This document shows, piece after piece, positions 26,801-32,800 of a DNA stretch of 64,000 bases. The DNA is taken from the NCBI GenBank assembly GCA_000934665.2, contig JYFJ02001411.1, positions 1 through 64,000 of the forward strand, read 5' to 3'. This DNA is from Catajapyx aquilonaris. Lineage: Eukaryota. The notes below the pieces were generated by a model. It had not been told where the DNA came from, did not search any database, and saw only the letters and a program-made list of their open reading frames with translations. Positions within the stretch are counted from its first letter, which is position 1, and the number at the start of each line of letters is the position of its first letter. The position numbers and the translations under genes were made by a program.

Positions 26801-29800
26801 CCCATACCATTCCACTTTGTCACTCTTAATTTTTCAGTATTATTCAGTGATGCATAATATGTAATTGGTGCCTTGCTGTTCAGTCCATAGTGACACTTAC
26901 TGTCCATCTTCCTCCTTGGTGATGTCTAGTCCAAAAGCCTGGATTGCTCCAGTTGGTGCACCAGGAGCTGCTCCTGGAGGTTCTGCAGGGGCTGCAGGTG
27001 CTGGAGCTGCCACTGGCTCTTTAACTGGCGTTGGTTCCTGAGCTGGCGGAAGTGCAGGTTTCTTCATGGGTTTGAATGCCATCTTGTCCTCCTCCTTCTC
27101 CTCAGGTTCCTTCTCCAGTTGTGGCCCAATCATGAGGGACATTAGCACACCAGTCACAAGCTTCACAACATAAGTCACACTGAAACCACTGTAGTAGAAC
27201 AGATAGAAGATGAGCTTGAAAAAGCCAACCACCAACTCCATAGTGGATCGCTCTGAAAGCTCAGCAATCTTCTTTTTGATGTTGGATGGAGACAGAGTTT
27301 GGAACACTAGCACTATCCCATCCTTCAAGTTGCATAACCAGTGCTTGATGGTTTCCTTTACACCTCTGCGAATAAATTTACGAGTAACATTTAGCATGTG
27401 TGGGTCCATATACCAAACTGTCACATTAGTTTATGATGGTAATGAAGGGTAGCCAAAGGCTGGCTTCAGATACAGGTCATATGGATATATCTCAAAGTCT
27501 CCCTCAAGGCACAAGCAGTTATACCAACCTTTCCTCCTCTTCCTCATTCATGTACTTGTATGAAGATTCTCTGGCTTTCCCAGACCCACCTTCATCTTCA
27601 GAGGTCATCAGTCCACTGGCATGTTGCATCTCAAAAATGGCATCTTCACAGAAGTCTACAAATGTCTCCAGCTTCTCTTTGTCTCCATCTTCATTAACAG
27701 TCGAGTAAAAGTATGCCCTCTTTGATTCCTGAAGAAGAAAGCACCAATGGCCAAATCCTTACAGGTCACCTTTTATTTTATTTTAAATAAAACCTATACA
27801 CTTGCCTTGATCTGAGGTTTCTCCCACTGTTCAATGTTTGATTCTTTAATTTCGAAGTACACCCGTTCAATCCTCTTACTACTACCCAGAATTTCAATTC
27901 TGCCCAGGAATGGTTCGAAATAGTTCAAGACACTGCTTGCAGTCTCCAGGAACCTCTGAAGTCTGCCAAAATATAAGAACAATATTAAAAAGCATATTCA
28001 TAGTTGATTAATGTAATTTCAGTCCAAAACTTGCCTCGGGTCATTGGGCATGTGCTCACTCAGGTTCGTTAGAAGGACAGCCAGATTAAAGCCAATGTCT
28101 TTGGCAGGGTTGTGGAAGCGCTCTGTGAACTCAATGTAGTCAATCTTCCCATCATGGTTTGTGTCACAGCAGAGCAAAAGGAATGTGATTTCCTCCCTGA
28201 AAGACAAAAATCAAATTATAATTCACTTGGATGTCAGTGAAACAGTACGGCCATTTTATGCTTGTAGAATATTATTTCCAACACAAGCGATCATTATGAC
28301 ATTACTTACGGCTCATAAGACTTCTGTTGCTCCATTTTCTCTTTGAATTCCCTTGGTGTTACATATCCATCTTTGTTTAGATCAATTTCCTGTAAAAGTT
28401 ATGTAAGGTTATTGAATCTTGTGTGCATTAACTGCAGTATAAGAAGTAACCTTCTGAAGACAACATATACTGATTTATTGAACATGATGATTTCTTTCTA
28501 GTAAACTGAATCACAAAGAGTCTAGCCTTCTGTGCTATTAATTTTGCTTAATGACTCTTGAAATGCCATAACTTAGCGTGCAGATGAGGATGAACTAAGA
28601 ATTAGACTACGCATCGAATCTACAAAAGGCATAGCTAGTCAGCTCTAAGAAATGTGCCAAAGAGTTCAGTGGAAATAATATCTCCGCTTCTCAATCAATA
28701 GTTTTCCAAGTGGTAATGAACATGAAGTAATAAATTCAAATTAATTGCATGAATTGAACCTCACGGCTTATGACCAATTTGAAGTGTGAAACAAAAAGTA
28801 AGTTACTATTTATTTTGCAGCCTAGAAAATATACACAGTGAGCCCCTGTTACCTGCAGATTCATTAAATTCCCTAGTTTCAGTTATCTGCAGTTTGAAAA
28901 TATTACGAAAATATTAAATAAAAGTGGGGGCCCACTGTACGTATCACAAATTTGAAATTTACATATAAAAATATCTGTTACATGTGATTCTGAAGAGTTC
29001 AAAACATTTATTTTTAGACATGATGCCAACAAAATGCGTGAAATATTTTCAATTACCAGATAAAGGAGATCATTGTGGTAAGCTCACTAAAGCGTGCAAT
29101 GGATGTTAATTGCATGACTGAATCTTTTTCTTTGGCTCTGTATTTCCAAGAAATTGATTTTCATTGATGCAACAGGAAATTTGAGAAAAAAAAACACTAA
29201 AATATGAATTCTAGGTATAGAGGTACAATATGGAACAATAGAGTCTGTACATCCTGAGGCAAAAGTGAAACGTGCCATACATGCATGCTATGCAAGCATG
29301 AAGAGAAGATTATTCATGCACATGTAATGATCATCAGTTAGGCATGCAAGCGCAATGCACACCAACCTGGAAGGATGTTGACGTAGTCAAATCCTTCAAC
29401 TTCAAGAACATATCGAAGTACCTGAGAATTATCTATAAGCAATTTAAAAAAAAAGAAGAGATAGTAAGAGAGAGGAACACTTATTCTGTTATAAACTCAT
29501 CACCACCACCCTTCCTGACTCCACACAAAATACAAAAACAAAAACAAATATTTCAAAAATAAAATATATAAGTGTGGGTGAGATGGTGAGTGTGGAGGTC
29601 CCAAGAGCATGTTACTAAACTGTAGCCCAAAAAAATTCACAACAGGAGCAATAATAACAGTCATCGTAATGCACACAACAGAGACTCAAGTTACCGATAC
29701 GCCAACTCAAAATGAGATACAGATATCCACAATAGTGAGGCAGTATGGGACAGGTGGCTAGGGATGGCTACCTGGAATGCTGGAGATGTTGTCAGGGCTT

Positions 29801-32800
29801 TCAATTTCAAGAACATATTGCAGAAGTTAAGAATGATCTGTAAATGAAAGTTTGTCTTATTTTCAAAAAAACAATATCAGTTGTAACCCAGCTCTAGTGA
29901 CCTCCAGCTGCACTCCATCTTTTTTTTTCTCTCCTGGGAAGAATGTAATTTTCCACAATGCTGTAGACTCGTAGAGTATACCTCGTAAATATCACGACAT
30001 TCGACAGAGATTTAGCTGTTGCGGTCAGAATCATACATAAAGTACATCACACTGAATTTTGTCCTTTTTTATCCCCCCTTCCTGAATATCCTTTCAAAAA
30101 CTTTATTATGCTGCTGTGTAAAATGTGGGGGGACACTTGGTTATCCCCCACAGAACATGACTTTTCACTGAATTTTAAAGTACTTTTGTTTTACTACTTT
30201 TGCTGAGAATGACATCACATTCTGTTGAACACCCCCTGCCCCCACATCATACGAGTATCAACTCCCACCACCAATGTGGTGCTTTTCATAAATGACTCCT
30301 CACAAAAGGAGGTATTTGTAATTTATAAAAACCTTGATTAGTGCATGTGATTAAACAAATATGTCTCAATGTCTGACATGTGATGTCTGCATATGGAATG
30401 ATAGACCGCATCATTCATTTCATCTTGCTGCTATGTTGATTTTTCAGGAAATGTCAATTTTACATTTATGGCCAACGAGTGCTTACTTCCGAATGCCATA
30501 ACAATTTGCCATTGCATCAGCTTGAGACACATATGTTTAATCACTCTGTAGAAATATTCTGCAAAACTACAATCAATGGCATAACTCAAGAAGAACATAT
30601 TCCATGACTGAAGATGCTGAGTGTTTCACAAAGTTGAACTTAGCAAAAATCAAACTTTAAAATATATTCTTTGTTTAAATGTAAAAATAAAATAAAATAC
30701 TACAACAGCAAATGAAGTTATTGATACTTCAAAAGACTTACCTCCACATTAGATGCAGACTCAACCAGAGTGTCCACCATCTGCTTGCCAATTGTGCCAT
30801 TGACGACATTACCTGCAACAATACAAAACGGAATCAATCACATCTGCCTTTCATTCAGTGGGTGAAACGAGTAAATAATCAAACTGTCTTAGTACAACAA
30901 TACATATCCAAAAAGCAAATGTCAATGGGCCAAAACATTACCTTCTAACATAGACAGCATCATGATGACCATGTCTTTCTGCAAATTTAACAGTTCTTTC
31001 AGAAGATCCACCTGACTTGAGTGTTTGGAAAGCTTCGCTTGCATGTGAGCAAACAAAAAGAGAAATCCACCGACCGCATCCCACAATCTGAAATTATAAT
31101 TTCAACAATTACTGTGGTCAGTGAACCATAAAATGCAAGTGCAAGAAGATGACTTACCTGGAATGCGCCAATGCTTGCTGGTTTTGTGTACATGGACCCT
31201 GAATCACTTCTGTGAGTGTGTTGAACACCTGACTGGCCACACCAATGGCCTTGAAAAAGTTGGCCTTTCCAGCAGGATCAATTATTTCCTTGCTTGAGTA
31301 GTGCCAGTAGAAATCCATAATTGATTCCTGTAACCTCAGGAGGTAATCCACAGTGCAGATGACAACATTAACGGTTGTGGTGTTTCCAGCCTGAGTTCGT
31401 AGGTAATTCTGCCATTCTGGAAAATGACCACCATGCAATTTTTATTATCTTGCATGTAAATGAATATCAGGCCATGTAACTGTTATCAATTTTAATGAAT
31501 ATTTAATAAATAATTATGACAGGATCTGAAAAATTTTCAAGCTTTCAGCTAATCAGGAAAGTAAGAAAATAACTGAATTATTACCCTAACTGTGGCAATT
31601 AGATAATTTAGCTCTGACTGAGCTCTTCAATATGTTCAAAGTGACTAGCATCTTTCATACCCAGATTGTGCCCCTCACAAGTCAGCTGGATGAAGCGGAA
31701 CAGGGCACAAGTAAATACTGCATCGTGCATGTTCTTCTCGCCTGCAGCACCATCTGAGCCAACTCCCAATCCCTCAGCCTTTGTGTTGCGCTCAAAGGCG
31801 TCCAAGTCCAGGACACTGTCAATATGAAATATTTTCATTATAATCAACACTGTTGCAGTTGCACGTGACAGTCACACCACAAACCTGCAAGAGCTCATGA
31901 GACCAGAAATGGAGGTGAAGAACCCAACATCTTTCTTCTCTTTCAGGTGATTCAGCATACCCTGTTTTGCAAAATGGGAAAAGAGAGAGAGAGAGAGGTA
32001 AACTGTAATACAGCCAATCCAATCCAAATAACAGTGGAGCTTTGAGAAGAATCACAGCACCAACCATCTGAATATCTGAGTTTCCACCTCTCAGGATAGA
32101 AATCCCAAGGTTCAGTGTCCTCATGACCATTTCACTTGGGACCCCCTTACAGGCAGATGTATGGAGAAGGACCATTTCAGCCACCCCTCTGTTGGCCAGC
32201 CGTGACTGATGGAACAATAGCTTCTGCTTCTCCATCTCTTGCTCCTGCAGCGGTAAATTATCATCAGATTTTTTTACACTTTACACAAGTAGCTATTTGA
32301 CATCCATAAAACATTGCATCACACAAGAAAATACAAGTGGGCTGCATACAATATTTAAACTAATGAAAGCCTAATATTCGGATATCATACAACAATCATT
32401 GAAGTTGCTCAAAGTACAGTAGCCTAACAACTTCGCAACTCTCAATATCCCAGGCTATACTAAGGCCCATCCCTGGTTGCTCCCCACCAATTGGTTCTCC
32501 ATCCCTACTACTCCTGTTTTAAAAACCCTTTAGATGGAGTCTCCATATGAGTGACAGTCTCAGAGTTACTCCATAATGATCATGAACTACTGGAAAATTT
32601 TCTTGTAGTGAATTTAAGATTGTTATTTGAAAATTTTCTTCACCGGACCATACCAGCTAAGTCCCATTTACATTCAGACGCCACTTGCATTAGTACCTTA
32701 CTACTGTTGTATCAAGTCTTTGTACACTTACAATCCTTTAGCAGATGTTTCAAAGGCAAAATCAGTCAAAGTGGTAAACAACTCAGATATTGTATTAATC

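Follow-up and report, generated by a model that had tools for sequence, protein, structure and literature searches.

Invertebrates have a single ryanodine receptor (RyR) gene, and its service to muscle, neurons and other tissues is usually ascribed to alternative splicing. In a 64,000-nucleotide stretch of Catajapyx aquilonaris DNA (GenBank assembly GCA_000934665.2, contig JYFJ02001411.1, positions 1 to 64,000; hereafter the window), the RyR gene carries two short paralogous exons in tandem directly ahead of its first EF-hand exon, an upstream variant (exon A) and a downstream canonical copy (exon B). The question raised by this locus is whether the two exons are used as alternatives, so that one gene yields two channels differing at this place. 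From the sequence comparisons described below, we regard it as probable that the pair is genuine and mutually exclusive and occupies a new RyR site, with A present in minority or tissue-restricted transcripts.

An old tandem duplication ahead of EF-hand 1

Exons A and B are homologous and adjacent, have the same length and phase, and are bounded by usable splice sites, as is characteristic of mutually exclusive pairs (coordinates in Table 1). The preliminary description of this DNA, which had reported paralogous exons of equal length and phase with intact splice sites, was borne out in these respects. The two exons were returned by a repeat search as a 74-nt direct repeat with 74% identity (29365-29438 versus 29770-29843), and a self-tblastx comparison of 23000-60000 found the two again, with 64% identity along 25 residues. 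Across the exons themselves, 15 of the 22 residues and 73% of the nucleotides are identical. The nucleotide similarity extends only 2 and 6 bases beyond the exon, and any similarity of the surrounding introns is gone. The flanking introns had been described as longer than most in the gene, which holds approximately: when a full-length RyR frame was tiled by tblastn, the gaps between consecutive exon matches were mostly 60-370 nt, and introns 1 and 3 (904 and 977 nt) belong to a group of only about seven gaps of at least 890 nt.

By the Nei-Gojobori method, A and B show 10.0 synonymous differences over 13.5 sites (pS 0.74, a saturation level) and 8.0 nonsynonymous differences over 52.5 sites (pN 0.15). 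Because synonymous sites are saturated, pN is low and the similarity ends at the exon edges, the duplication is old and A has been kept coding. This pattern fits the earlier suggestion of selection on both copies, and the retention by A of its frame, length, splice dinucleotides and 15 shared residues is hard to reconcile with neutral decay. Exon A carries Cys at position 6, Asn at position 7 and Ala at position 14, so that both acidic residues of B are lost in it, as previously pointed out; the hydrophobic core, comprising the MFLKLK motif, Leu15 and Phe21, is retained.

To place B among known receptors, proteins were searched with the neighboring 95-residue RIH-associated exon, which gave 363 RyR proteins, 120 of them listed. 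The motif region was present in 69 of these 120, and since all 69 were B-like, exon B represents the canonical form. Asp occupied exon position 7 in 68 of the 69, the exception being a sea-spider protein with Asn, which upholds the earlier view of B as the conserved form, and none of the 69 was without both acidic residues. The other 51 listed proteins stop before the segment, read through into the intron, or belong to divergent groups with a single form of their own. Two gene predictions, P0058 and P0076, read through the intron after the exon ending in NVE (the constitutive exon upstream of the pair) and then contain an ILR[YH] stretch resembling an out-of-frame helix exon, which could be a damaged or mis-assembled copy of the helix exon in those genomes.

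In the chain numbering of solved structures, exon B corresponds to residues 4057-4078 of RyR1 and ~4012-4033 of RyR2, and its Asp7 and Asp14 to D4063 and D4070 of RyR1. The Pfam profile of the EF-hand pair (EF-hand_7) begins in the last residues of the exon-B equivalent in L007, a spliced RyR contig from a relative; both the helix ahead of EF-hand 1 and the entering helix of that hand are thus encoded by this exon. Position 9 of the exon equals F4020 of RyR2 in the numbering of 4967-residue RyR2 chains, and F4020L is included in the list of catecholaminergic polymorphic ventricular tachycardia (CPVT) mutations in the available part of PMC8560800.

The gene lies on the minus strand, and most of it is contained in the window, from at least ~57000 down to ~23900. 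MIR, RyR-repeat, RIH-associated and ion-transport domains were all detected above the curated Pfam cut-offs, on one strand and in the order of RyR proteins. The 95-residue RIH-associated exon shares 96-98% identity with named arthropod RyR proteins, and the full-length RyR frame of a relative tiles exon by exon along the window in tblastn. Over the C-terminal third, identity to named proteins and loci is ~65-67%, and none of them is closely related to the window. The paired EF-hands expected of a RyR follow the RIH-associated domain, with a D-x-N-x-D-G loop in exon 28389-28309.

Recurrent A-type exons with the same two Asp losses

To search for comparable exons elsewhere, metagenome contigs were scanned with the 95-residue exon, which yielded 76 RyR loci. 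These were then scanned in six frames by ungapped BLOSUM62 scoring with only the A and B peptides of the window as references; the background maximum on the minus strand was 36. Both the exon ending in NVE and the canonical exon were present in 33 of the 76 loci. They were fused in 13 of these, among which at least L007 and L008 are spliced mRNA-like contigs, and separated by an intron in the remaining 20. An extra upstream A-type exon was found in five of the 20 intron-keeping loci (L001, L006, L041, L009 and L010), where 22 open codons preceded by AG lie between the NVE-ending exon and the canonical exon. These five loci represent four species, since L009 and L010 are 98.8% identical and were taken as one, and a sixth case was found on a truncated contig (L025). 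In the other 15 intron-keeping loci the best in-intron score was at most 20, and no extra exon was found. The preliminary description had stated that the lack of an orthologous duplicate in related species would refute the pair; comparable upstream duplicates do occur in five other species-level loci, with orthology unproven. The coding form of an alternative exon is likewise conserved in these five, whose exons were found by similarity. Open 22-residue windows resembling exon A also occur in cockroach- or termite-like loci (L074:1289, L076:1271, L028-L030:846 and L033:833; scores 38-46), where they have no AG or GT and lie 3-6 kb upstream of the RIH-associated exon, a place that is wrong for A; they are probably chance matches in AT-rich intron.

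When the six A-type exons, including that of the window, were aligned, L3, L10, L12 and K13 were invariant. Position 7 was occupied by N/N/H/N/R/Q and position 14 by A/N/P/S/I/S, never by an acidic residue, whereas all five B exons had Asp at both positions. The exon starts with Ile in A of the window, as in B, and with Lys or Arg in the five other A-type exons. Cys6 is specific to the window and occurs in none of the other five, so the idea that the added Cys tunes redox regulation was rejected as a general feature of A-type exons.

The carriers were placed on a FastTree phylogeny of 1160 columns, for which a collembolan RyR fragment served as the tiling reference, with 68 rows kept after 34 of 102 rows with fewer than 250 covered positions had been dropped. 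L001, L006, L025 and L041 clustered with a named collembolan (support 0.88), and the A-type exon was present in all four loci of this Collembola-like cluster that cover the site. The window branched off first within the insect-side clade (support 0.998), with the remaining insects together at 0.70, and L009/L010 fell in a separate group of seven loci outside the hexapods (support 1.0). Carriers therefore occur in three lineages: the Collembola-like cluster, the early-branching insect-side lineage of the window, and one crustacean-like species (L009/L010). No extra exon was found in the intron-keeping insect loci (L026 and L031-L036), nor in L012 and L050, relatives of L009.

This distribution fits either one old origin followed by several losses or at least three independent duplications, and the other A-type exons, which are no closer to A than to B of the window, favor neither. 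Independent tandem duplications in the lineages of the window, the Collembola-like loci and L009, converging on the loss of both Asp residues, have in our estimate slightly less than an even chance. They would account for the scores of the other A-type exons, which are no better against A than against B, for the different first residue of A in the window, and for the 15 intron-keeping loci lacking the exon, among them the insect loci and the two near L009; convergent gains in different RyR regions have moreover been reported for vertebrates, flies and nematodes in the available part of PMC9741552. Against them stand the upstream position, 66-nt length and phase common to the window and the four Collembola-like loci (probably 84 nt in L009/L010), the loss of both Asp residues in all six exons, and the presence of the exon in four of four site-covering Collembola-like loci; the saturation of sites and a length of only 22 residues put the question beyond the reach of any tree. 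This alternative concerns the origin of A only and is compatible with a mutually exclusive pair.

Table 1. Features of the RyR gene in the window and A-type exons of other loci
Feature	Locus	Position	Strand	Basis	Details
Upstream constitutive RyR exon	window	30742..30812	minus	sequence	ends ...VESASNVE (...GTGGAG); donor GTAAGT
Intron 1	window	29838..30741	minus	sequence	904 nt; weak polypyrimidine tract ahead of exon A
Candidate pairing element, intron 1	window	29891..29906	minus	complementarity	16 nt; 54 nt upstream of exon A
Exon A, variant	window	29772..29837	minus	sequence	66 nt, 22 codons, phase 0/0; acceptor CAG; weak donor GTAGCC
Intron 2 (A to B)	window	29433..29771	minus	sequence	339 nt
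Candidate pairing partner, intron 2	window	29593..29608	minus	complementarity	
Exon B, canonical	window	29367..29432	minus	sequence	66 nt, 22 codons, phase 0/0; acceptor TAG; donor GTTGGT; strong polypyrimidine tract
Intron 3	window	28390..29366	minus	sequence	977 nt
EF-hand-1 exon	window	28309..28389	minus	sequence	EIDLNKDG...; donor GTAAGT
MIR	window	56762-57013	minus	Pfam	
RyR domain	window	52613-53113	minus	Pfam	
RIH_assoc	window	31154-31441	minus	Pfam	
Ion_trans	window	24128-24454	minus	Pfam	
A-type exon	L001				score 65; 66 nt, GT directly after
A-type exon	L006				score 49; 66 nt, GT directly after
A-type exon	L041				score 51; 66 nt, GT directly after
A-type exon	L025				score 59; after ...NVE exon; GT directly after; contig ends 7 nt past exon
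A-type exon	L009/L010				score 40; no GT at +66; GT after 84 nt, in frame; probably 84 nt

Proposed splicing of the pair and competing explanations

The course of events that we propose is that a 66-nt exon encoding the helix before EF-hand 1 and its entering helix was duplicated in tandem long ago, with B remaining the canonical and probably default form and A being kept by selection as an alternative coding exon. On the premise that A is spliced and that the two exons exclude each other, A most likely substitutes for B in minority or tissue-restricted transcripts. An A channel would differ in 7 of the 22 residues and would lack the conserved Asp7 and Asp14, from which we infer that the swap would alter Ca2+/EF-hand-dependent gating.

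Several observations weigh against this reading. No A-like protein was found among the 120 RyR proteins listed of the 363. Two further protein searches gave no match at E<=10, one with the 40-residue frame from exon A (3 candidates) and one with the alignment of the six A-type exons (1617 candidates); both were underpowered, and as 22 informative residues were set against 5.8 billion sequences and the search covered only proteins of 71-2000 residues, these blanks say little. The metagenome collection holds spliced mRNA-like RyR contigs beside genomic contigs of the same species, a useful source of splice evidence. L007 and L008, two records and the only transcript-like contigs found, match the genomic exons of L009/L010 at 97-100% identity with all introns absent, and L007 is a single open frame of 4445 residues. 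In both, the NVE-ending exon is joined directly to B and the A-type exon is skipped, which shows that in the L009 species this exon is not constitutive. No transcript with an A-type exon was seen in any species. For 28200-38199 of the window, the sequencing runs listed comprised one of unknown kind (share 0.28) and none of RNA. The polypyrimidine tract of exon A in the window is poor, and the donor of this exon is weak. Between loci, A-type exons evolve several times faster (pN 0.29-0.45, pS 0.70-1.08) than B exons (pN 0.08-0.24), and since those of the other loci were picked out by similarity, their sub-saturated pN partly reflects this choice; A-type exons are constrained, yet far less than B exons, and part of the apparent constraint is due to the way of finding them. 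Those of the other loci are also no closer to A than to B of the window, and their orthology is unproven. Finally, the score of the L009/L010 candidate is only 40, GT is missing at +66, and scores of 37-46 were reached by seven plus-strand windows that lie in unrelated locations and lack splice sites (L028, L029, L030, L033, L050, L074 and L076); this candidate is therefore supported more by its position and context than by its score.

Several of these points would be expected if exon A were a non-functional relic, a pseudo-exon that is spliced never or only accidentally, with all RyR protein carrying B. The missing A-containing transcript or protein (among the 120 listed proteins, the two underpowered peptide searches and the two mRNA-like contigs), the skipping in L007 and L008, the weak acceptor tract and donor of exon A and the fast divergence of A-type exons between species could all be explained in this way. 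Such a relic is nevertheless unlikely, because A keeps its open 22-codon frame, AG/GT dinucleotides, length and 15 of 22 residues despite saturated synonymous sites, while the similarity of the flanking introns has disappeared, and because open, AG-preceded extra exons with the same Asp losses occupy the corresponding site in five other species-level loci.

If A is used, the next question is how its inclusion could exclude that of B. As 66 is a multiple of 3, double inclusion or skipping keeps the frame, and nonsense-mediated decay cannot police the choice. Exclusivity enforced by frameshift is thereby ruled out, and an active mechanism would be needed, as the preliminary description argued. 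Simple steric exclusion is unlikely in the window, given the length of intron 2. The long polypyrimidine tract at B, together with the poor tract and weak donor at A, suggests that B is the default and that A needs activation. In arthropods, mutually exclusive exon clusters employ competing RNA structures with docking and selector sites. A similar arrangement was predicted in the window, where one element of intron 1 upstream of exon A could pair with a site in intron 2 at -19 to -22 kcal/mol (-22.0 at best) and also with a site in intron 3 at -20.5 kcal/mol; as a hypothesis, the pairing with intron 2 would loop out exon A. Unlike docking and selector systems, however, these pairings were not above controls. 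For local duplexes in the window, 7, 10 and 6 of 40 shuffles reached at least the same strength (7/40 and 6/40 for the pairings of the docking/selector kind), and the z-scores of whole-intron duplexes against shuffles ranged from -2.1 to +2.6 in L001, L006, L009 and L041, none of which stood out.

A different mechanism has been described for exons 4a and 4b of OGDH, which exclude each other sterically through distant branch points with a threshold of ~50 nt (available text of PMC7969005). In L009/L010, the intron between the A-type exon and B contains a sole YTRAY branch-point consensus (CTAAC) 21 nt from the A-type donor, which is under that threshold; downstream of it come a long pyrimidine tract and a stretch devoid of AG that ends no more than 4 nt from the B acceptor. 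Judged from motif positions only, steric exclusion is plausible in L009/L010. The OGDH mechanism would not apply to the window, where intron 2 measures 339 nt and its AG-free zone 47 nt.

A further explanation is that exon A is used without strict exclusion, either as a cassette together with B, giving a 22-residue tandem insertion, or with some transcripts lacking both exons. Double inclusion or skipping would cause no frame shift, intron 2 is too long for simple steric blocking, and no RNA pairing exceeds the shuffled controls. On the other hand, a 22-residue insertion or doubled motif was present in none of the 69 listed RyR proteins covering the segment, and the fold would probably not tolerate duplication or deletion of this conserved helix, which packs ahead of EF-hand 1; in L009/L010, the branch point 21 nt from the A-type donor and the AG-free stretch would block A-to-B splicing. 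We consider non-exclusive use quite improbable, and retain mutually exclusive splicing as the preferred interpretation of the pair.

Other tandem exons in RyR genes and the meaning of the pair

No description of a pair at the pre-EF-hand position was found in the full-text literature, the search of which left most subscription journals outside its coverage, and within this scope the previous statement that the pair was not recognized as described still stands. The widely documented exon swap of arthropod RyR is that of SPRY2 only, far from the Ca2+-sensing core. According to the available text of PMC6026295 and PMC3989282, the insect SPRY2 exons a and b are mutually exclusive, occur in 21 of 26 insects, and are regulated by stage and tissue; in the same available text, and in that of the review PMC8301844, no EF-hand site is given among the alternative sites. 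The window contains two exons at 51306-51208 and 50942-50844 (minus strand), ~33 residues each and 64% identical, both with donor GTAAGT at the same position, which look like this known pair. They resemble A/B in being tandem paralogous exons of the same gene with intact splice sites and similar divergence, but they lie in another domain (~residues 1135-1165), are ~99 nt rather than 66 nt long, and are widespread in insects, whereas none of the insect loci examined here had the pre-EF-hand pair. Of the two SPRY2 copies, the L007 transcript matches the downstream one.

For RYR3, fly RyR and unc-68, substitution events between tandem exons are tabulated in PMC9741552 (table S5), with the human and fly events marked as 'different region, convergent'. 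As far as its available text goes, these events resemble A/B in that homologous tandem exons substitute for one another in RyR genes and that gains are recurrent and convergent; the table gives no positions, and nothing in it places an event at the pre-EF-hand helix. In the available text of the unc-68 isoform paper (PMC7644089), the term 'mutually exclusive' appears a single time, with reference to alternative first exons, and EF-hands are not mentioned.

Two further cases concern nearby parts of the receptor. In L051, which groups with lophotrochozoan sequences, three tandem paralogous EF-hand-1 exons start at 11533, 12501 and 12860 on the plus strand, each preceded by CAG. Like A/B, this cluster consists of paralogous exons in tandem and lies in the same part of RyR; it differs in affecting the next exon, that of the EF-hand-1 loop, in three copies and in a distant phylum, with the helix exon single. 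The comparison suggests that exon duplication recurrently affects the EF-hand region. A mollusc protein (P0063) has two successive EF-hand-1 segments; this is probably an artefact of gene modelling at the same cluster. In the calmodulin-binding region of the window, tandem paralogous exons at ~34265-34153 and 33927-33818 (minus strand) are ~35% identical over 34 residues, with good acceptors and the donors GTATGG and GTGAGT. Their lengths of 113 and 110 nt are both 2 mod 3, so that inclusion of both or of neither would shift the frame. The L007 transcript is closer to the upstream copy (72% versus 42.5%). Alternative splicing near the calmodulin-binding site in some insects is noted in the available text of PMC6026295.

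Other features of the window include long open frames of 577 and 353 residues at 7422-11184 on the minus strand, which are serine-/proline-rich, lie downstream of RyR on the same strand, and probably belong to a neighboring gene. A short direct repeat within a RyR intron (44130-44065 and 43981-43916, minus strand) has stops in both copies and is non-coding. At least one N, read as X in translated frames, is located at ~58900-59090.

A broader history can be put forward only tentatively, as a possible but doubtful extension of the mutually exclusive pair. The pair may be an old isoform switch that possibly predates the split of Collembola and insects, and perhaps that of hexapods and crustaceans, and that survives in early-branching hexapods and some crustaceans after loss in most insects. 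It would alter Ca2+ activation or inactivation of the channel and would act in combination with the SPRY2 and calmodulin-site pairs, with exclusivity achieved in lineage-specific ways, by a distant branch point in one species and by RNA pairing in another. One RyR gene could then encode a combinatorial set of channels.

If the mutually exclusive reading is true, the two isoforms would provide a natural channel pair for testing what the helix entering EF-hand 1 contributes to Ca2+ regulation, in a segment affected by the human CPVT mutation F4020L. In Collembola, early-branching hexapods and some crustaceans, the A-type exon may be absent from gene models or wrongly merged in them.

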